From Escherichia coli (GTDB lineage: Bacteria > Pseudomonadota > Gammaproteobacteria > Enterobacterales > Enterobacteriaceae): 64,000 nucleotides of DNA. A program made the translations under genes and the position numbers. The notes beneath the pieces are model-generated. The model did not search any database, had not been told where the DNA came from, and saw only the letters and a list, made by a program, of their open reading frames with translations. This document shows positions 47,916 to 57,575 of the stretch, piece by piece (the stretch's first letter is position 1; the number at the start of each line of letters is the position of its first letter). Location: NCBI RefSeq assembly GCF_001677475.2, contig NZ_CP015229.1; one strand, 5' to 3'.

Positions 47916-48962
47916 TTAACGTCCTGCTTTCAGCTTCTGATAATACTCTTCATAAATGCTGCTGGCTGCGCCAACGTCATTCTGCCATTCACCATTTTTA
48001 ATGGTTTCAGCATCCGGGTAGAGCGTTTTATCGTTCGCCACTTCCGGGCTTAACAGCTTACGCGCCGCAAGGTTTGGCGTTGGATAACCGATAGTTTCGG
48101 CAACCTGTTTTGCCACATCCGGGCGCAGCAGGAAGTTGATCAGTTTCAGCGCGCCTTCTTTGTTTTTGGCATTCGCCGGAATTGCCAGGCTGTCCATCCA
48201 GAAAATGCCGCCTTCTTTCGGCCACACGACGTCAATTGGTGTACCCGCCTGGCGTGCAACGAAAGCAGAACCGTTCCAGATCATGCCGAGGTTAACTTCG
48301 CCTTCCATGTACGGGTTAGCCGGGTTATCGGAGTTAAACGCTGCGACGTTTGGCATCAGTTTTTTCAGCTCGTTATATGCAGCTTCAATCTCTTTCGGAT
48401 CGGTGGTGTTACCGGAATAGCCCAGCTTACGCAGCGCCATCTGGAACACTTCACGGGCATCGTCGGTCAGCAGCAGGCTGCCTTTGTACTCAGGCTTCCA
48501 CAGATCGGCCCAGCTGGTAACGGATTTCGGATCCACCGCATCACCGTTAACGCCAATCGCCGTCGCACCCCAGATATACGGAATGGAGTAGTCGTTATTC
48601 GGGTCAAAAGGCTTGTTGAGCATGTCTGGATCGAGATTGCTGAAGTTCGTTAACTTCGACTTGTCGATCTTCTGGATCATCCCTTCTTTACGCATTTTAT
48701 CGACGTAATAGGTTGAAGGAACCACCAGGTCATAGGCACCGTCTTTGTACGTTTTCAGCTTGGCATACATGGTTTCGTTCGACTCGTAAGTCGAATAGAT
48801 AACCTTAATACCGGTTTCTTTGGTGAACTGTTCAAGCAGTCCTGGCGGCACGTACTCGGTCCAGTTGTAGAAATACAGCGTGTTGTTGTCATCGGCGTGA
48901 GCGGCGCTCATGCCCAGTGCCAGAGCACCCGCCGCGAGCAGGTGGCGTGACCATTTTTTCAT
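47916..48962 (-). CDS. potD: spermidine/putrescine ABC transporter periplasmic binding protein
   Basis: 348 aa with signal peptide. Confidence 0.95.
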   Translation of the reverse strand: MKKWSRHLLAAGALALGMSAAHADDNNTLYFYNWTEYVPPGLLEQFTKETGIKVIYSTYESNETMYAKLKTYKDGAYDLVVPSTYYVDKMRKEGMIQKIDKSKLTNFSNLDPDMLNKPFDPNNDYSIPYIWGATAIGVNGDAVDPKSVTSWADLWKPEYKGSLLLTDDAREVFQMALRKLGYSGNTTDPKEIEAAYNELKKLMPNVAAFNSDNPANPYMEGEVNLGMIWNGSAFVARQAGTPIDVVWPKEGGIFWMDSLAIPANAKNKEGALKLINFLLRPDVAKQVAETIGYPTPNLAARKLLSPEVANDKTLYPDAETIKNGEWQNDVGAASSIYEEYYQKLKAGR

Positions 48963-49753
48963 TTAACGTCCCCTGTGTTACCTTTCGTTTTATCACGAGC
49001 AATAAGCTGGCTGGCAATAACCATCACCAGCGACAGCACCAGTAATATGGTTGCCAGCGCGTTAACTTCCGGCGATACGCCGACTTTGACCATCGAATAA
49101 ATTTTTAACGGCAGAATTTCATAACTTGGTCCGGTGACGAACGAAGAAACTACCACATCGTCCATCGACAGGGTAAAGCTTAACACCCAGCCCGCCGCTA
49201 CCGCTGGCATTGCCAGTGGCAGAATGATTTTTCGCAGAATGGTAAATTCGCTGGCACCGAGATCTTTCGCCGCTTCCAGCATTCGCACGTCAAAACCTTT
49301 CAGGCGCGAATACACTGTCACCACCACAAATGGCAGGCAGAAGGTGATATGCGAGAACAGCAGCGACCAGAAGCCAAGCTGAATACCCAGCAGCATAAAC
49401 AGCACCAGCAGCGAAATCGCCATCACGATATCTGGTGACATCATCACTACAAACAGCATTCCGCTAACGAACGGCTTACCACGAAAGCGATAACGGTACA
49501 GTGCAACTGCCGTCAGTGAACCGATAAGCGTAGCAAACGTCGCCGAAAACACCGCCATTGTTAGTGAATGCTGCGCTGCCTGTAACAGGCTGTCGTTGTT
49601 CATCAGCAGGCTATACCATTTGGTGGTAAAACCCTGCCAGTTGATGCCAAAGCGCGAGCTGTTAAAGGAGTTCACAATCAAAATAATGATTGGGATATAC
49701 AGGTACGCGTAGATAGCGGTCATAAAACCGCCGCGAAGCAGTCGACCGATCAT
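48959..49753 (-). CDS. potC: spermidine/putrescine ABC transporter permease
   Basis: 264 aa, six-TM permease with ABC EAA-loop region. Confidence 0.95.
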   Translation of the reverse strand: MIGRLLRGGFMTAIYAYLYIPIIILIVNSFNSSRFGINWQGFTTKWYSLLMNNDSLLQAAQHSLTMAVFSATFATLIGSLTAVALYRYRFRGKPFVSGMLFVVMMSPDIVMAISLLVLFMLLGIQLGFWSLLFSHITFCLPFVVVTVYSRLKGFDVRMLEAAKDLGASEFTILRKIILPLAMPAVAAGWVLSFTLSMDDVVVSSFVTGPSYEILPLKIYSMVKVGVSPEVNALATILLVLSLVMVIASQLIARDKTKGNTGDVK

Positions 49754-49788
49754 TCGAGTTCCACCTTCTTATTCATAAGGCGGGACAC
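49750..49788 (-). other. potB: potB 3'-terminal codons (…SRLMNKKVELE-stop) retained next to potC; probable prophage att core / junction
   Basis: Minus-strand frame upstream of potC reads …KVSRLMNKKVELE with TGA overlapping the potC ATG, matching the remembered PotB C-terminus; the frame closes about 40 codons upstream with non-PotB sequence. Confidence 0.55.
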
Positions 49789-49919
49789 TTTCAGGATTTT
49801 GAATTTATTCAATTTTTTCCTTTCTCCAAAATCTCTCCAAAACGTTTCCCCAAAACTAGGCCACGCATTTTACAACACTTTTTTCCTGAGATGGTGACGG
49901 ATATTCCATATGGTGTTTG

Positions 49920-51038
49920 TCAAATAACCAACTTAACCCATTCCTGACCTCGAGTATCGTTATAGCGATCGGTGGTTGCCTGGACTTTATGTCCTAGTAA
50001 TGTTTTTGTATCGATACCCTGTGCACGGTACAGCCGTTCTGATAGAGAGCGTTGTTCATGAAATGTTGGCGGAGTTTTTCCTGCTGGTGGAATTATCCCA
50101 GCCAGATCCCGTGCTTTGGCAAAGTAGTCGCTCAGGTTGTCTTTACTCATCGACTTCGGTTGTTTCTGGTGCCGACTATGGATTAGATATGGACTTAATA
50201 TTCTGTCTCGGCACCCATCAATAACTTCTTTTAACGTTATCCCAATGGCATCACAGCGTAGTGTAAGCGGTAACGCCAGACGCATTCCGGTTTTTCCTTG
50301 GGTGATATGCAAGTGTTCGTTCCACACATCTGAAAAACGCATGTGGCAAATGTCATCACGGCGCTGACCAGTAACAATCGCAAGAAGCATTGCGTTACGG
50401 ATAAAGTGTTTTTCAGGCGTTGCGTTGTAAATTTTTTGCCAGTCTTCCAGGGTGAGTCTGGCTCTGGTTACTTTAGGGATTGGTTTACGGGTAGCCTCCG
50501 GAGGATTCCATCCAGGAGGAACTTCCCCTGCATGCTGTGCTTCTTTATAAATATCAAGCCATAATCCGCGATTTACTCTCGCTGTGCTGACCATGTCTTT
50601 ATCCAGCCACTCATCCAGTATTAATGCAAAGTCTCTTACTTCCAGTTCTTTCAATGGGTGGTTTCCCAGACGGGAAACCAGGAATGCAGCCATTCGCGCT
50701 TTTTCTTTGTGGGTTGTAGCTGCAATATCTCCATTTTTCAGGCGCGCGTCCTGTATTTTCAGATATCGATCAACCCATGCCTTTAATCTGATACCCCGAC
50801 GTTTTGTTGCTGATGGACTTTCATCAATTTTGCGCATGAAATATTCAGCTTCTGCTGCAGCTATTCGCTGATTGGCTGTGGAAGCGATTTTTTCTGCCTT
50901 ACCTTTGTCTGTTCCGAGTCCGTGAAATTTTCCAGTCACAGGATTTTTATACTGGTAGTAAACTCTGCCAGTTCTGCGATCAAACTTTTCGTAAAGACCG
51001 GCTACGTCAGTGCTGTTTTTTCGTGGCCTCGGTGACAT
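49920..51038 (-). CDS. int: lambda-family tyrosine integrase
   Basis: 372 aa; C-terminal catalytic region HEQRSLSERLY…LLGHKVQATTDRYNDTRGQEW resembling lambda Int. Confidence 0.93.
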   Translation of the reverse strand: MSPRPRKNSTDVAGLYEKFDRRTGRVYYQYKNPVTGKFHGLGTDKGKAEKIASTANQRIAAAEAEYFMRKIDESPSATKRRGIRLKAWVDRYLKIQDARLKNGDIAATTHKEKARMAAFLVSRLGNHPLKELEVRDFALILDEWLDKDMVSTARVNRGLWLDIYKEAQHAGEVPPGWNPPEATRKPIPKVTRARLTLEDWQKIYNATPEKHFIRNAMLLAIVTGQRRDDICHMRFSDVWNEHLHITQGKTGMRLALPLTLRCDAIGITLKEVIDGCRDRILSPYLIHSRHQKQPKSMSKDNLSDYFAKARDLAGIIPPAGKTPPTFHEQRSLSERLYRAQGIDTKTLLGHKVQATTDRYNDTRGQEWVKLVI

Positions 51039-51285
51039 GAGTTAAAATCTCCTTCAGTGCATCATCATCGCCAGTATGAATTTCCGGCGCAATTCCCGTT
51101 TCACCAGGCCCAACAAATACTGCTCGGCGATCTATCAGCCAACGCCCACGAATTTTTTGTGGTCTTGGAACGATGTATCCTAGTTTTCCGTATTTCACCA
51201 GGGTAGTGTTTGTTATTGGGAGACTGAACCGTTTTGGTTTCCACTCGTCGAGCGTTATCAGGTACTGTTCGCTCATGGCTATCAC
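51007..51285 (-). CDS. xis: excisionase (Xis-like)
   Basis: Small basic ORF overlapping int start; LITLDEW…VFVGP pattern resembling lambda Xis; start may be at MSEQYL (51276). Confidence 0.7.
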   Translation of the reverse strand: MIAMSEQYLITLDEWKPKRFSLPITNTTLVKYGKLGYIVPRPQKIRGRWLIDRRAVFVGPGETGIAPEIHTGDDDALKEILTHVTEATKKQH

Positions 51286-51337: not shown

Positions 51338-53809
51338 TTAAAAATCAGCCTGATTCGGGATCAGTTTTTGCCAGATAGCTGAAACGTATTTTGCCTGGTG
51401 ACGAGCGTCATCAAGTGCATTATGGCGCTCACCTTCGAATGGGATAGCAGTTCTGGCATCGAAGTCTATGGTTTTCCCCAGCTCAACGATTGTGCGTACA
51501 TCGCGATCGTTGTAGTAACGCCACGGGCAGGGGATCCCCTGCCGTTCGTATGAACGGCGCAAAATCGTGTTGTCGAAGTTGGCTCCATTTCCCCAGACCT
51601 GAACAAAAAACTCACCGGAGTTTTCGGCGATAAATTCCCGCAATTGCAGTAGTGCATCATCTAACGGGATTTCATCGGTCATAATGGCAGACTGCGCTTC
51701 ACGTGATTGCTTCAGCCACCATTTAATGACGTCACGATCAATGACTCCGCCAGCAGTATCCAGATCGATGGTCTTGCTAAATTCCGGTCCCATATCACCG
51801 GTTTGCGGATCGAAAAATATTGCACCTATTGAGATAATCGGGGCATCAGGATTTTTTCCCATGGTTTCAAGGTCGATCATCAGATGAATCCCCGCTCTGC
51901 TGGTGGATGTGAGATTATGATGACTGTTCATCTTAATTAAGGGATCTGTCGCCTCGCCAGTTTTATTATCGCTGGCGTGATGCTGATTGCCGCCAGGGTT
52001 CTCCTTGTGTGGATGTTCAGCGCCTTCCATTTCCTCCGGATCATTTTCCTGAACTTCAGGCTGATTCTCTTCATCGAATATTTCCTGGTATGTTGCGTCA
52101 CCCATCACCGCGCCACAATCAGGGCAGTTGCCGCCACCGCTCTGACCGCAGGCTGTGCAGACTTTTTCCGGTTCCTGTTGCGCTACTGGCTCAGGTTGTT
52201 TCGTTTCTGGCTCGTTTTGTTGCGTATTTGGGCTGTTTTGTTCCGCTTTCTGGTCGTTCTGTTCCGTTTCTTGCTGGTTCTGGTTCACAGAATCGCGGGT
52301 TTCAATCCCCTTCACCCATTTCGGATCATTCGGATCGCTAATCCCTGCAACAAATTCACCACGTGATACTGCAAGCAGTTCATCGGCGTCATGCTGGCTG
52401 ATATTGGCTGCCTGCATAATTTTGTTTACTTCGTCAGCGGTAACTTTTACCGGCCCTGGTTGTGCGGTCGTGTCAGATGCACCAGTATTTTGTTGTGAAC
52501 CTGAGTATGTACCGTTTTTGCGGGCGAAATATTCTTCTTTCGTGATTTCAGTAGCCCCGGCAGCCAGTGCCTTATCCAGACCAGAAAGTTTGTTTGCGCG
52601 ACCGTATTTTTCGCCATCCTTGTCGGTGAAGAGGAAGTAGAATGGCCCCTCACGCTCTACAGATGGTTCGACTTCCACTTTGCATTCGGTTTTTTCGTTG
52701 TCCGGAATTGCCGTTTCCACTGCATCAGTTTCTGGTACTGGCGACGAGAGAGTATCAGTTGCGCTCTGATTTCTTCCTTCATCTTCAAACACGCCCTTTG
52801 TAGTCAGGTATTCAGTAATGTATTTGTTCAGTGCCACAGGGTCTTTGTGAATGTCGATCGGACGTTCACGAACAAGGCCAAAAATAGTCTGGCGGTCGTA
52901 GCGAAGGGCATCAGGCTGTTTGCGCATTGATGCCGAGATACGCTTCCAGTCTTCGCGGTCGTTGTCGATAACTTCATTTTTTGCCCAGCGATGGATGCTG
53001 CCATCAATGTTTCCGACATCCACATCACCAGGCCAGAGAGCGTAGGCCAGTTCGTCATCCAGTGTTTTCCATGTCTGCTTGTATTCGCGATGAGTGGCAG
53101 CAATGACCGGGCTGATTTTTCCTGTTGAATTTTCAGTGTGCTGTTGATTGGCTCTGGCGCGGGCGAGATCAACAACAGACGTGTATTTTCCGGTTTCCTT
53201 GCGTTCACCTTCGCGACGTTTTTTCCAGATGCGCATCTCTGCCTGAATTTCGGGCCATTTGGCACCAGGCTTACATTTATGCTTAACCCACCCGATGGCA
53301 TGCAGCTTAAGCTCCGGATACATGGCGTTAACTTCTGGCATTTTCATCAACGCTTCAACGATATGTCCGTCGAATGTTGCCATGTCTTCCTGCAACAATT
53401 CCTGCGCGCTAATCACCATATCAACGGTGATGTTTTCACATGTACCGAACTTAACCAGGACCGCGTTCTGTACTTCAAGGGACAGCTTGTCAAAATTGAC
53501 GTTAATAGGATCGGATTCTGGTTCGACCGGAATAAAGGAAGCGGATTCCTCATCCCAGCGGTTTTCCTGCATATATTCGGTATCCCAGGAGTCGATAGCA
53601 GGGCGGGGCATGCCGGGTTTATCTTCGCAGACAAGAAATTTATAAGCGCAGTCCTGAGCAGCAGGATATTGCTCCAGGAATTGCCAGGTAAATTTGGCAC
53701 GGGCGCGGCGTTCATCACCGGCTTCAATGGCAGTGGCTACAGCAACTGCGCCCTCTTCTTTTATTGCCTGTTCGTCCGGAATGGCGGCGCAAATAAAGAC
53801 TTTACTCAT
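51338..53809 (-). CDS. large phage protein with C-terminal DEDDh 3'-5' exonuclease domain (often annotated exonuclease VIII-like)
   Basis: 823 aa; C-terminal IHLMIDLETMG…GNGANFDNTIL…HNALDDARH (DnaQ-like Exo I/II/III motifs); central CTACGQSGGGNCPDCG zinc ribbon; Q/E-rich linker. Confidence 0.8.
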   Translation of the reverse strand: MSKVFICAAIPDEQAIKEEGAVAVATAIEAGDERRARAKFTWQFLEQYPAAQDCAYKFLVCEDKPGMPRPAIDSWDTEYMQENRWDEESASFIPVEPESDPINVNFDKLSLEVQNAVLVKFGTCENITVDMVISAQELLQEDMATFDGHIVEALMKMPEVNAMYPELKLHAIGWVKHKCKPGAKWPEIQAEMRIWKKRREGERKETGKYTSVVDLARARANQQHTENSTGKISPVIAATHREYKQTWKTLDDELAYALWPGDVDVGNIDGSIHRWAKNEVIDNDREDWKRISASMRKQPDALRYDRQTIFGLVRERPIDIHKDPVALNKYITEYLTTKGVFEDEGRNQSATDTLSSPVPETDAVETAIPDNEKTECKVEVEPSVEREGPFYFLFTDKDGEKYGRANKLSGLDKALAAGATEITKEEYFARKNGTYSGSQQNTGASDTTAQPGPVKVTADEVNKIMQAANISQHDADELLAVSRGEFVAGISDPNDPKWVKGIETRDSVNQNQQETEQNDQKAEQNSPNTQQNEPETKQPEPVAQQEPEKVCTACGQSGGGNCPDCGAVMGDATYQEIFDEENQPEVQENDPEEMEGAEHPHKENPGGNQHHASDNKTGEATDPLIKMNSHHNLTSTSRAGIHLMIDLETMGKNPDAPIISIGAIFFDPQTGDMGPEFSKTIDLDTAGGVIDRDVIKWWLKQSREAQSAIMTDEIPLDDALLQLREFIAENSGEFFVQVWGNGANFDNTILRRSYERQGIPCPWRYYNDRDVRTIVELGKTIDFDARTAIPFEGERHNALDDARHQAKYVSAIWQKLIPNQADF

Positions 53810-53902
53810 TTTGTTTTAACCTCATTACAGATTTAAGGGTGAACAAATCCCTGCCATTGCTGGCATATAAAAATGAAACCGGATATTAATTACGGTGCTG
53901 TT

Positions 53903-54094
53903 TTAAAGTCCTGCCGGTATTTCGTTATTATTAGTGTGAGTAGTTTTATCTACCGGATAACAGTTACCGGGAATTTTTTGTTCTGCTGCTGCAGCCATGC
54001 ATTCTTTCATTGAACCGTATAAGCCAGTCACCAGCTCAAGAGATTCGCCGGAAACAAGATAAACTGTCAGAACGAGTGCAAATGTTGTATTCAT
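53903..54094 (-). CDS. small membrane-anchored protein (kil-position), unknown function
   Basis: 63 aa with N-terminal hydrophobic helix; start overlaps upstream gene stop (ATGA). Confidence 0.55.
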   Translation of the reverse strand: MNTTFALVLTVYLVSGESLELVTGLYGSMKECMAAAAEQKIPGNCYPVDKTTHTNNNEIPAGL

Positions 54095-54279
54095 TGTTTA
54101 TATCCTTTTTGCAGCAGGTCCAGACGAGCCAGCATTGAAGGAATGCATACTTCATTTAACAGGTCCTGCTCGAGTTTTCTCTGCTTAATGGCGTCTTCAA
54201 TAAATGTTTTGTCTCCAGTGATAACGCCAATTTCGAAACGAAGTTCAGACGTGCTGGCATTACATGATAACTTTTCCAT
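54091..54279 (-). CDS. small hypothetical protein (kil-position)
   Basis: 62 aa from MEKLSCNASTSEL with GAGGA SD 9 nt upstream; the track's 97-aa version lacks an RBS and overlaps an inverted repeat. Confidence 0.55.
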   Translation of the reverse strand: MEKLSCNASTSELRFEIGVITGDKTFIEDAIKQRKLEQDLLNEVCIPSMLARLDLLQKGYKQ

Positions 54280-54296
54280 TATCGCGTCCTCAACAA

Positions 54297-54444
54297 TGAA
54301 TTTTGTGATGCGGTGCCTGGTGCCTCCAGGTGACGTTAACCAGTTAACAATTAACGCAGGATACAGAGAATCCACCCATAACACTGTTTTTGGTTTTTAC
54401 TGTTCCGCGTGCGCTGAGCCGCATTCACCGCATCACAAAATTCA
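54297..54444. repeat. perfect 19-bp inverted repeat pair (tgaattttgtgatgcggtg / caccgcatcacaaaattca) flanking a 110-bp palindrome-rich spacer
   Basis: Arms at 54297-54315 and 54426-54444 checked base by base; spacer contains cctggtgcctccagg and gttaaccagttaac palindromes. Confidence 0.85.
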
Positions 54445-54856
54445 CTTTTAAAAAAGGGCGGCAGAGCAGTCACGGAGTAAAACTGATACCGCCAAATGTC
54501 ACCAGAATATTGATAACAGAGGGCGTTGTAGCGGGGTTGTCACTTAAGCGTATGGTCAACCTGACAACCCGGTGTCCTCAACGGGGAAAGGCGTCCCTCC
54601 CACCCCCGCCATACTTACCGCCGCGCCATTTCGCGGGTCGCCACAACCGGAAGCGCACGGTCGAATTAAATTTAACGACACCGTGCAGTGAGACGAACTT
54701 CGCCGTGCGCTTTCGTGTTGTGTGCCTGCTTTTAACCACGTCAGGCGAGGTGGTTTCCGTCATTCCCCAACGACAGGAAATCTGTATAATCTGGGTATCC
54801 CCAACGATCCAAGGAAATCATATGACAGAGCAAAGAGCACAAGCAGGTGATGGTGT

Positions 54857-55303
54857 ATGGACCGGGATGATATTCTTGACAGAATTTTTTATGGCTATTT
54901 TCTTGAGCAACTGTTTTCTGTAGCGACTGGTCGTCTCGATAAACTTCTCTCAGTAGTGAGTATTATCCTCGGTTCATCTGTCATTGGCGGATTCATTCCG
55001 GAAATTTCTGGCGTTTTTATTGTTGTGATCGCAACCGTCCAAACGATTTATGGATTCGGACAAAAGTCAGGTAATACCATGAGAAAATCCGCAGAATATT
55101 TGCAGCTTTTTGATGATGCAGAAAAATATTCTGATTCGGAATTGAAAATTCAGTTAAAAACTCTGGAAAAAACAGATGATCATATTTGGTCATCACTTAA
55201 AGATATTGCGATCTTAAAAACACAGATCAAAATAGGCGTCTCCATCGAACAACAAGAGAAGTTGCCCACAAAATCCAAATTGATGCGATTTCTTTGTGGT
55301 TAG
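54857..55303 (+). CDS. 2-TM membrane protein on opposite strand at the Rac sieB position; candidate superinfection-exclusion / abortive-infection effector
   Basis: 148 aa, SD AGGTGA 6 nt upstream; two adjacent hydrophobic helices (LSVVSIILGSSVIGGFIP / ISGVFIVVIATVQTIYGF) then charged C-terminal tail; convergent with flanking minus-strand genes. Confidence 0.65.
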   Translation: MDRDDILDRIFYGYFLEQLFSVATGRLDKLLSVVSIILGSSVIGGFIPEISGVFIVVIATVQTIYGFGQKSGNTMRKSAEYLQLFDDAEKYSDSELKIQLKTLEKTDDHIWSSLKDIAILKTQIKIGVSIEQQEKLPTKSKLMRFLCG

Positions 55304-55392
55304 GAATATCCAGATTGTTAAAGAGCATGCCGGAGGTTTATCCGTGTCCGGCGCACGCACTTCATCTGCGGAGAACTACTTGAGCTCATTGG

Positions 55393-55608
55393 TCAGTAGT
55401 TTTCAATCACTCGCGAAACGTTTAATGCCGCGCTTTTTGCCAGAGTGGTAATATCCTGCTCCGCTGACACCAGTTCTTTAGAGAGGCGCTCTTTGTAGTC
55501 AGCGGCCTGCTTCAGGTCATTAATGGCGCGTATCTTTCCGCACATCCATTCGTAAATTTCATCCTCGGTATAGTCTGGTGCGATGATGACGGGTTCTCGT
55601 TTCTGCAT
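55393..55608 (-). CDS. hypothetical protein
   Basis: 71-aa ORF MQKREPVIIAPDYTEDEIYEWM…; hairpin gccggag…tccggc between it and the convergent 2-TM gene. Confidence 0.5.
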   Translation of the reverse strand: MQKREPVIIAPDYTEDEIYEWMCGKIRAINDLKQAADYKERLSKELVSAEQDITTLAKSAALNVSRVIENY

Positions 55609-55637
55609 ACTGATTCCTCGCGGTGCCGCTTCGCTTA

Positions 55638-55766
55638 TCAGCCGTTAGATTTTGCCGAACTGGAAAGCGCCTGTTTAAACTCACTGAAGCTGAGAGCTTC
55701 TTCGCCTTCGGCAAGGTCTTCGAAGTATTCTTCGTAAGCCTTTTCCATGATTGCGTCGAAATCCAT
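55638..55766 (-). CDS. small acidic hypothetical protein (42 aa), ydaF-position
   Basis: Hand translation MDFDAIMEKAYEEYFEDLAEGEEALSFSEFKQALSSSAKSNG; starts 2 nt after stop of upstream gene; not in track (<60 aa). Confidence 0.5.
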   Translation of the reverse strand: MDFDAIMEKAYEEYFEDLAEGEEALSFSEFKQALSSSAKSNG

Positions 55767-55767
55767 A

Positions 55768-56010
55768 TCACTCACCTGAATTTCTTTCCAGCCAGCGACG
55801 AGCGCCAGTTTCGGTTTTAAACGTTTTACTTTTGGTATACGTCATCGCGGTGAATGTGCCGTCCTGGTTGGGAAACACGCCGTACACCAGAGATTCGTTG
55901 TTGCCAAGATCGATAGTATCCATGTTGACCTCATTTCCCCTTAACGCTGGGGTAGCGGAACTAAAAACCTGCTGCGCTGTTATACAAAGTGTTCCCGCCG
56001 TCATGTTCAT
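55768..56010 (-). CDS. small hypothetical protein, ydaG-position
   Basis: 80-aa track ORF; real start may be the internal Met (MDTIDLGNNESL…). Confidence 0.45.
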   Translation of the reverse strand: MNMTAGTLCITAQQVFSSATPALRGNEVNMDTIDLGNNESLVYGVFPNQDGTFTAMTYTKSKTFKTETGARRWLERNSGE

Positions 56011-56126
56011 ACGCCTCGGGCTGGCTACTTAATCCCTGACCACTACCGGGTAACTCTAGGTATTGCCCTGTATTGTGTGGGACGGGATGGGTTGGTATGG
56101 GAAAACTATAGGAAATGCCTAATTGC

Positions 56127-56147
56127 TTGTCAATAGGCTATGCCTAA
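56127..56147. promoter_or_regulatory. operator-like site, downstream copy of 21-bp inverted repeat flanking repressor gene
   Basis: ttgtcaataggctatgcctaa is the exact reverse complement of 56772-56792; additional tgcctaat half-sites at 56114-56124 and 56160-56170. Confidence 0.6.
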
Positions 56148-56241
56148 TGATTTGGGTGCGACCTAATAGGTGATGGTTTGTGGGAGAGGTAGTAGGAGTT
56201 AACTAACGGGAACTAGGAATTTCCCGTCGGACCATATAAGT

Positions 56242-56718
56242 TTAAGTTCCTGTCTTGGTGATGTTCTGGCTTTTCCGTTTTGATTCTTGATTTTTCAGAT
56301 AGTTAGCTACCTTCATTTCCATTGCGGCAATGTAGGCGCGAACGTCATGATCAACCCAACTAGGCTCCGTAGCATTTCCAGATAAGAGGAAAGCCACAAT
56401 TGCTCTTTTTTCATCAGAGGCGGCTTGATAAAGGCTGTTTATGTCTAAAAGTTCACTTTTTGTATCTGAAGTGGATGGGGTTGGTATGGGGTATTCGTTA
56501 AGCCCCCAATGCTCTGGACCAACCACATCAGAAAAGAAACGCCATAGTTCTGGAAGTTTGTCTTTACTTATCGAACCTTTCTTAATCCAGTCATGGATTG
56601 ATGGTGGTTGGACTTTGAAATGACGTGCGATTTCCGCCTTTGATTTGACGGCTCCTGATGCAATTTTTTTGTTAATGGCCTGCTCTATCGCTCGGCCTAA
56701 GTCTTTACCACTAAGCAT
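56242..56718 (-). CDS. prophage repressor, RacR-like (HTH, no S24 peptidase domain)
   Basis: 158 aa with N-terminal HTH (KAEIARHFKVQPPSIHDWIKKG); divergent from Cro-like gene; same length and position as Rac RacR. Confidence 0.75.
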   Translation of the reverse strand: MLSGKDLGRAIEQAINKKIASGAVKSKAEIARHFKVQPPSIHDWIKKGSISKDKLPELWRFFSDVVGPEHWGLNEYPIPTPSTSDTKSELLDINSLYQAASDEKRAIVAFLLSGNATEPSWVDHDVRAYIAAMEMKVANYLKNQESKRKSQNITKTGT

Positions 56719-56771
56719 TGCTTAATAGTCTCCTATGCGCATCGCGTTAGGCAATACCTACTCTCGAAGCG

Positions 56772-56792
56772 TTAGGCATAGCCTATTGACAA
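56772..56792. promoter_or_regulatory. operator-like site in divergent repressor/cro promoter region
   Basis: ttaggcatagcctattgacaa plus neighbouring ttaggca and attaggctaagcctaat near-palindromes between repressor and cro-like genes. Confidence 0.6.
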
Positions 56793-56842
56793 TCACATTA
56801 GGCTAAGCCTAATATTATTGTGTGTTTTTTGGAGTTCATTCG

Positions 56843-57166
56843 ATGAAAAAAGATAACTATTCATTCAAACGAGCTTGTGCTGTTGTCGGTGGGCAATCAG
56901 CAATGGCTAGGCTTTTAGGTGTATCTCCTCCAAGCGTAAATCAATGGATCAAAGGTGTACGTCAGTTGCCTGCTGAGAGATGTCCTGCGATTGAACGAGC
57001 AACAAAAGGTGGTGTCCTGTGTGAAGAACTTCGTCCTGATGTTGATTGGACATACTTACGACGCTCGTCATGTTATTCGCAGAATATGTCGATGAAGCAA
57101 CCAAATGACGAAAACGATCATACCCGAAGCATCAAGAGGCAAATGATTCATGAAAATCAAACATGA
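56843..57166 (+). CDS. Cro-like HTH regulator (YdaS family)
   Basis: 107 aa from ATG with GGAG SD; HTH ARLLGVSPPSVNQWIKGVRQLP; divergent from repressor. Confidence 0.75.
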   Translation: MKKDNYSFKRACAVVGGQSAMARLLGVSPPSVNQWIKGVRQLPAERCPAIERATKGGVLCEELRPDVDWTYLRRSSCYSQNMSMKQPNDENDHTRSIKRQMIHENQT

Positions 57167-57575
57167 GCATATCCGCATGGCGATGAATGCCTGGGCATAC
57201 CCTGATGGTGAGAAAGTTCCTGCAGCTGAAATAGCCCGGACTTATTTCGAACTGGGAATGACGTTCCCGGAACTGTACGACGACAGCCATCCGGAAGCCC
57301 TGGCCCGTAATACCCAGAAAATTTTCCGTTGGCTGGATAAAGACACCCCTGATGCTGTTGAAAAAATGCAGGCTCTGTTACCGGCGATCGAAAAGGCGAT
57401 GCCGCCTTTGCTGGTGGCCCGTATGCGCAGCCACAGTTCTGAGTATTACCGTGAGATTGTCGAACGGAGGGATCGGTTGGTGAAAGATGTCGACGATTTT
57501 GTTGCGTCAGCGGTTGTTTTGTATGACCAGATGAATCGCGGCGGCCCGGCAGGAAATGCCGTGGTGATGCACTAA
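57150..57575 (+). CDS. YdaT-like (CII-like) regulatory protein
   Basis: 141-aa ORF immediately after the Cro-like gene with overlapping start, as ydaS-ydaT in Rac. Confidence 0.65.
   Translation: MKIKHEHIRMAMNAWAYPDGEKVPAAEIARTYFELGMTFPELYDDSHPEALARNTQKIFRWLDKDTPDAVEKMQALLPAIEKAMPPLLVARMRSHSSEYYREIVERRDRLVKDVDDFVASAVVLYDQMNRGGPAGNAVVMH

Follow-up and report, generated by a model that had tools for sequence, protein, structure and literature searches.

We identify the overlapping genes at positions 53903 to 54279 of the window, the window being the whole 64,000-nucleotide stretch of Escherichia coli DNA analysed here, with high confidence as the dicB-ydfD pair at the distal end of the dicBF operon of a lambdoid prophage that lies beside potC. 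The region as a whole is then correctly labelled as the early-left dicBF operon of that prophage, with its copy of DicF. The identities of the genes, the anatomy of the operon, its conservation and the purifying selection acting on the pair are observed directly in the sequences compared. The locus is already known, being annotated in public genomes and covered by a substantial literature: work on dicB goes back to the 1980s and work on ydfD to 2016, and the allele present in the window is already named in RefSeq. The functional work has all been done on the K-12 allele, while the window carries an O157-type allele whose products are 55% (DicB) and 63% (YdfD) identical to those of K-12. In O157-type strains, DicF copies reportedly matter for the regulation of virulence (PMC6832061).

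Anatomy and family membership of the overlapping pair

Both genes are encoded on the minus strand. As read from the sequence, the first (ORF A, dicB, 54091..54279) runs from 54279 to 54091 and specifies a protein of 62 amino acids, MEKLSCNASTSELRFEIGV...KGYKQ, and the second (ORF B, the ydfD-family gene, 53903..54094) runs from 54094 to 53903 and specifies one of 63 amino acids, MNTTFALVLTVYLVSGES...IPAGL. The TGA stop codon of dicB and the ATG start codon of ydfD share the tetranucleotide ATGA at 54091..54094. A Shine-Dalgarno sequence, GAGGA (54287..54291, minus strand), is positioned 7 nt 5' of the dicB ATG at 54279, and a second one, AAGGA (54103..54107, minus strand), is found within the end of ORF A, 8 nt 5' of the ydfD ATG. 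Because of this overlap and of the internal Shine-Dalgarno sequence, co-translation of dicB and ydfD is plausible, and the overlap suggests that the two genes are translationally coupled. The dicB frame is open further upstream, to a GTG at 54384 that would give a 97-residue version; however, the DicB domain begins at the internal ATG, and in the 97-residue version the Pfam match is confined to residues 36-97. A start at the internal ATG agrees with the title of Cam et al. The end of ORF B is separated by 93 nt from the start, at 53809, of a gene for an 823-residue exonuclease. The first-pass annotation had described a 62-residue and a 63-residue ORF overlapping by ATGA just upstream of an exonuclease gene, and both its coordinates and this anatomy were confirmed on reading the sequence.

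ORF A matches the Pfam family DicB (PF05358) over profile positions 1-62 of 62, with an E-value of 7e-39 and a score of 131.8 bits (cut-off 27), and the NCBIfam model NF049927, "cell division inhibition protein DicB", at 123.7 bits, the cut-off being 100. At E ≤ 1, Pfam-A returned one further match, a chance one to PH_28, and NCBIfam returned the DicB model alone. In BLASTP the protein aligns with K-12 DicB over its full length without gaps, 34 of 62 residues (55%) being identical, and in a near-identical genome (99.8% over an 801-nt query) RefSeq names the matching gene dicB (WP_000413705.1). By these matches ORF A is DicB and not an anonymous peptide. The motifs FEIGV and EDAI are kept in the window protein; across the alleles compared the invariant elements are FxIGV, ExxAI and LLN. 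The window DicB also retains the near-invariant columns of a 14-sequence alignment, and a further 27 columns are invariant across six DicB alleles, although these are present in the window protein by construction. A search with DicB of sequences in the PDB gave no relative and one chance match at E 0.85. A word-indexed protein search gave 22 clusters, a number that does not measure the size of the family because other allele classes share few exact 5-mers.

The first-pass annotation had placed the pair at the position of kil and proposed FtsZ inhibitors of the Kil/KilR type. The position is indeed equivalent: dicB-ydfD is part of the early-left operon, with the immunity region on one side and the recombination, xis and int genes on the other, and lambda kil and Rac kilR likewise precede the recombination genes in their early-left operons. 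FtsZ is the described target of Kil and KilR. The proposal of a division inhibitor survives in so far as ORF A belongs to a prophage family of division inhibitors, but that family is DicB, and neither ORF gave a Kil or KilR match in Pfam-A (E ≤ 1) or in NCBIfam. The shared position would suit a Kil/KilR-type peptide that inhibits FtsZ directly, accompanied by a membrane peptide as an accessory, and filamentation would be expected of DicB as well; however, the database models found for ORF A are those of DicB, and the characterised DicB of K-12 binds MinC and is targeted to the septum through ZipA, with no direct targeting of FtsZ (PMC6832061). We consider the Kil/KilR alternative very improbable.

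ORF B matches DUF1482 (PF07358) over profile positions 2-57 of 57, with an E-value of 2.8e-19 and 69.2 bits (cut-off 25), as the only Pfam-A family at E ≤ 1, and phrog_1092 over positions 1-63 of 63 (E 3.5e-34); NCBIfam gave no family at E ≤ 1. Aligned with K-12 YdfD by BLASTP, it is identical at 40 of 63 residues (63%), full length and ungapped. RefSeq labels the window allele as a DUF1482 family protein (WP_001098307.1) and K-12-like alleles as "lysis protein YdfD". On the evidence of these matches ORF B is a DUF1482/YdfD-family protein. It keeps the EQKIPG motif and the two cysteines, C32 and C45, that are invariant across the family; in the YdfD alleles, invariance extends to these cysteines, to Q-x-I-x(3)-C-x-P at the core of EQKIPGNCYP and to ExPA at the C-terminus. 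Its DUF1482 homologues form 239 clusters at 90% identity and, among the top 120 listed, every named one comes from Escherichia or Shigella. A PDB sequence search with the YdfD-like protein gave no match, and the PADLOC defence models matched neither this protein nor DicB.

The N-terminus of ORF B had been read as a hydrophobic helix. A hydrophobic stretch is present, but it spans only about 10 residues (F5-V14), with a mean Kyte-Doolittle value of 2.35 over 11 residues and 1.51 over 19, and AlphaFold2 models it as a strand (residues 4-12), followed by a second strand (18-26), a helix (29-39) and a third strand (44-48). The model has a mean pLDDT of 79.9 and was built from an alignment of 26 sequences, the five models ranging from 49 to 80. 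It gives a weak indication that the hydrophobic N-terminus may be a buried strand rather than a membrane helix. A Foldseek comparison of the model with the PDB gave no match with E below 1 (best E 1.0, TM approximately 0.3-0.4), and we assign no fold.

In all ten loci that we compared, which represent three allele classes, both frames are intact and overlap by 4 nt, the shared sequence being either ATGA or GTGA, and dN/dS is below 1 for both genes. We also considered whether the pair are chance open frames, or whether the true gene is encoded on the plus strand. Opposite dicB-ydfD that strand is unusually open, with a 102-residue ORF at 54143..54451 in the window and ORFs of 181-196 residues in some alleles (L004 and L005), the longest, of 196 residues, being in L004. 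However, the plus-strand ORFs (53873..54013, 54010..54138 and 54143..54451) match no family, and they vary in length and break up between alleles, while the minus-strand ORFs give full-length matches to curated families at E 7e-39 and 2.8e-19. We rejected both forms of this reading, whose probability is close to nil, and the pair is taken to be dicB-ydfD in what follows.

The dicBF operon and the surrounding prophage

The small RNA DicF, with its hairpin and U-tract, is encoded on the minus strand at 54456..54507, 177 nt upstream of dicB. It matches Rfam RF00039 over model positions 1-52 of 52 at 77 bits (gathering score 48, E 4.9e-16) and is identical to K-12 dicF at 51 of 52 positions. DicF was absent from the first-pass annotation; its presence would have identified the locus. 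Between dicF and dicB lies a leader (54288..54453, minus strand) that RNA folding predicts to be structured, with a closing stem of approximately 22 bp (AAAAGUGAAUUUUGUGAUGCGGUG ... CACCGCAUCACAAAAUUCAUUGUU) that ends directly 5' of the dicB Shine-Dalgarno sequence. The fold of 54260..54520 (minus strand) has an energy of -94 kcal/mol and a z-score of -5.25, and none of 200 shuffled sequences was as stable. The leader is 96% identical to that of K-12 and 96-100% identical across allele classes, and it could be an element for processing or for translation control. It also gives a sub-threshold match to the Rfam family STnc100 (28.7 bits, where the gathering score is 47); membership of that family was rejected on this score, and we read the match as hinting that Salmonella prophages have a related leader.

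Upstream of dicF, on the same strand, are a ydfC-like gene (55393..55608), a ydfB-like gene (55638..55775) and a ydfA-like gene with an open frame (55768..56010), the last of which belongs to DUF1391 (PF07151, E 6.6e-28). The three genes, which together span 55393..56010, match phrog_751, phrog_2061 and phrog_1744, and ydfA and ydfB are named by RefSeq in a collinear genome. A consensus scan places a sigma-70-like promoter at 56105..56133 (minus strand), TTGACA and TATAGT with a 17-nt spacer, matching the consensus at 11 of 12 positions, and by analogy this putative promoter sits at the position of dicBp or PL. In K-12, dicBp lies upstream of ydfA, the pair is transcribed from the promoter there, and no promoter is evident within the operon (PMC10448788). 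The same consensus scan, applied directly upstream of dicB-ydfD in the window, found weak matches of 9 of 12 positions at best. The order promoter, ydfA, ydfB, ydfC, dicF, dicB, ydfD, exonuclease, xis, int agrees gene for gene with that of the K-12 Qin prophage, and conservation of the dicBF operon across prophages has been described (PMC5069750).

At the other end of the pair, between ydfD and the exonuclease gene, a weak terminator-like hairpin (TGCCAGCAATGGCA then GGGATTTGTT) was indicated at 53852..53865 (minus strand) by a consensus scan alone; the sequence is conserved in K-12. Of the transcripts detected in K-12, the longest stops after ydfD (PMC10448788).

An insertion at approximately 54700..55390, between ydfC and the DicF precursor region, contains a plus-strand ORF of 148 residues (54857..55303) with two hydrophobic segments, and K-12 has no gene at this slot. 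The ORF has no Pfam match; it matches phrog_6315, of unknown function, and weakly the PADLOC models RTasSLATT (E 0.013) and Csx1 (E 0.008). It is present at full length in 71 of 5426 E. coli genomes. Since the slot is occupied in other prophages by different hypothetical genes on the plus strand, it looks like a variable moron site.

The exonuclease gene downstream of the pair (51338..53809, minus strand) matches phrog_2082 over its full length, and residues 642-813 of its 823-residue product form a Rv2179c-like 3'-5' exonuclease domain (PF16473, E 4.5e-66). Residues 237-626 resemble the middle of RecE, exodeoxyribonuclease VIII (NF007259 positions 260-603, far below the cut-off); the protein appears to be a hybrid in which the Rv2179c-like domain at the C-terminus replaces the nuclease domain of RecE. 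Downstream of it follow xis (51007..51285) and then int (49920..51038). On the other side of the operon, a candidate helix-turn-helix repressor of 158 residues (56242..56718, minus strand) adjoins the promoter and is followed, in divergent orientation, by a YdaS/Cro-like gene (56822..57166, plus strand; PF15943, E 4.6e-30) and a YdaT-like gene (57150..57575, plus strand). This immunity region (56242..57575) is of the YdaS/YdaT (Rac-like) type and not of the DicA/DicC type, so the details of regulation may differ from those in K-12.

Over 8.3 kb the prophage is collinear with genome NZ_AP042495 at 94.9% identity, and this collinearity places potD and potC directly to the left of the integrase gene (approximately 47916..51038). 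From this arrangement the lambdoid prophage would adjoin the pot operon at its potC end and extend rightwards past the region examined. A segment at approximately 56100..57143 is not shared with NZ_AP042495.

Distribution, allele classes and selection

When positions 53800..54600 were searched by megablast, 4653 of 5426 complete E. coli genomes contained a match, at a median of two and at most nine places per genome. The complete genomes carry roughly 10,800 copies of dicB-ydfD, and the genes under these matches are named by RefSeq as dicB and either "DUF1482 family protein" or "lysis protein YdfD". The allele class of the window, taken as at least 95% identity over the 801-nt query, accounts for approximately 640 records, many of them from O157, O145, O103 and other Shiga-toxin-associated lineages. 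The locus is also found in sequenced temperate phages, and some of these records annotate DicF, DicB and YdfD. Of the ten loci compared in detail, one is that of the window, one is that of K-12, seven come from other E. coli genomes and one from an Stx2a phage; they fall into a K-12 type, a window/O157 type and a PPompW/Stx2-phage type, and the protein search revealed a further DicB allele class. In comparisons of one class with another, dN/dS ranges from 0.23 to 0.54 for dicB and from 0.34 to 0.49 for ydfD, and these values indicate purifying selection on both genes.

Against K-12, nucleotide identity is 95.5% in the ydfA-ydfB region, 96% upstream of dicF, 98% in dicF and 96% in the leader; it falls to 72% in the dicB coding sequence and 76% in that of ydfD and returns to 91% in the 3' flank. 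In the comparison with the K-12 locus (L002) the drop starts at the dicB start codon, and the recovery occurs within the last 20 or so nucleotides of ydfD. Synonymous divergence within this block is 0.56-0.64 against K-12 and, for dicB, reaches 1.9 against the PPompW class. Two mosaic DicB proteins (P0126 and P0129) combine a K-12-type N-terminus with a middle and C-terminus of the window type, which points to recombination between allele classes inside dicB. The simplest reading of the diverged block is ordinary lambdoid mosaicism, in which old alleles are exchanged through conserved flanks. It is a possible but unlikely alternative that dicB-ydfD is an anciently diverged allelic cassette and that diversifying or balancing selection maintains its classes. 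If this were true, the classes could, for example, be co-adapted as pairs or differ in the incoming phages or host targets on which they act, and the pair would be a variable exclusion or abortive module instead of a fixed combination of division inhibitor and lysis protein.

A two-component arrangement, toxin and modulator, had also been suggested for the pair, and in its strict form this would mean mutual binding of DicB and YdfD and allele classes that are co-adapted cognate pairs. The genes do overlap and are co-inherited, the class of dicB being that of ydfD in all ten loci, and the divergent block extends over the two coding sequences at 72-76% nucleotide identity, its edges falling at or just inside their ends, between flanks of 91-98%. 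Moreover, K-12 YdfD lyses cells when expressed, and co-expression of DicB prevents this lysis, as recounted in the part of PMC8835842 that cites Masuda 2016. The suggestion holds to the extent that DicB suppresses YdfD lysis. However, the same account, again citing Masuda 2016, has co-expression of the unrelated SulA likewise abolishing the lysis, so that a block of division suffices. Since lysis is blocked by SulA as well as by DicB, it would be division-dependent, and since SulA protects too, a dedicated antidote role for DicB is unlikely. DicB is itself toxic, each product being toxic alone, and the pair, with no promoter of its own in K-12 (PMC10448788) and only the 9/12 matches here, does not look like a self-contained module. 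In addition, adjacent overlapping genes should stay linked even without co-adaptation, recombination has occurred inside dicB, and PADLOC recognises neither protein. A dedicated toxin/modulator pair is therefore quite unlikely, and we retain the dicBF reading, in which a division inhibitor and a lysis protein are made from one operon.

It was also asked of the diverged allele whether it has changed or lost activities of the K-12 proteins, be it the host partner, the phage-exclusion spectrum or the targeting of IspG. The N-terminal 13-14 residues of DicB are reported to be critical for activity, in a study that also includes a MinC pull-down (PMC4967827), and 7 of the first 14 positions differ between the window and K-12; together with the 55% and 63% protein identities and a dN/dS of 0.35-0.54 against the K-12 allele, indicative of moderate constraint, this would be consistent with altered function. 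However, the frames are intact, the lengths and the overlap are unchanged, the family-invariant residues are kept in both proteins, and the allele is common. We judge such a change improbable. Among the papers searched, none describes an experiment on the O157-type allele class.

Expected action of the operon and comparison with known systems

Taking into consideration the homology of the two proteins to their K-12 counterparts, and the K-12 operon as the analogue for expression, the following course of events would be expected. The operon would be the early-left transcript of the prophage, held off by the prophage repressor. [quoted passage not shown] DicB would then be translated from its internal ATG behind the long structured leader, and YdfD, with its own Shine-Dalgarno sequence and a start codon overlapping the dicB stop, would be translated with or after it.

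DicB is predicted to bind MinC and to carry it to the septum through ZipA, where septal MinC would dismantle the FtsZ ring and cause filamentation. By the same MinC interaction DicB would block ManYZ and so exclude phages that inject their DNA through it; for K-12 DicB, the inhibition of ManYZ, and hence of lambda and 434 infection, requires this interaction (PMC6832061). YdfD would act as a lysis protein by inhibiting IspG of the MEP isoprenoid pathway, which one study reports it to bind and inhibit (PMC8835842). This lysis would require ongoing division, so that DicB made from the same message would delay or prevent it.

The closest counterpart is the Qin (Kim) prophage of K-12, in which dicF, dicB (189 nt) and ydfD (192 nt) are followed by ydfE and intQ, in the same order as in the window. 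K-12 DicB (b1575) is also 62 residues long, lies downstream of dicF and the same structured leader, overlaps the next gene by 4 nt, and has an in-frame upstream extension with an internal start. K-12 YdfD (b1576) shares with the window protein its length of 63 residues, both cysteines, the EQKIPGNCYP core, the EIPAG C-terminus and the overlap with the dicB stop codon, whereas residues 18-28 and 51-56 have diverged. At 55% protein and 72% nucleotide identity, the two dicB genes differ far more than their flanks (91-98%). The window prophage has an intact int, xis and exonuclease gene and a YdaS/YdaT immunity region, whereas Qin is decayed, and the K-12 counterpart of the exonuclease gene is the pseudogene ydfE, cut by IS2.

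Lambda Kil and Rac KilR resemble DicB as small early-left prophage proteins that block division and cause filamentation from an equivalent map position, but Pfam and NCBIfam revealed no sequence-family relationship between them and DicB. YebW, the second DUF1482 protein of K-12, belongs to the same Pfam family as ORF B, some of whose close homologues carry the label "YebW family protein" at NCBI; the window protein is set apart from YebW by its dicB-linked position, which is typical of YdfD. In its proposed mode of action YdfD resembles single-gene lysis proteins of small phages such as E of phiX174 and A2 of Qbeta (listed in PMC8835842), which lyse growing, dividing cells by blocking a step of biosynthesis rather than by breaking down the wall. 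These two inhibit the synthesis of cell-wall precursors, whereas the proposed target of YdfD is IspG, and YdfD, unlike them, belongs to the early operon of a tailed temperate phage that has a separate lysis cassette of its own.
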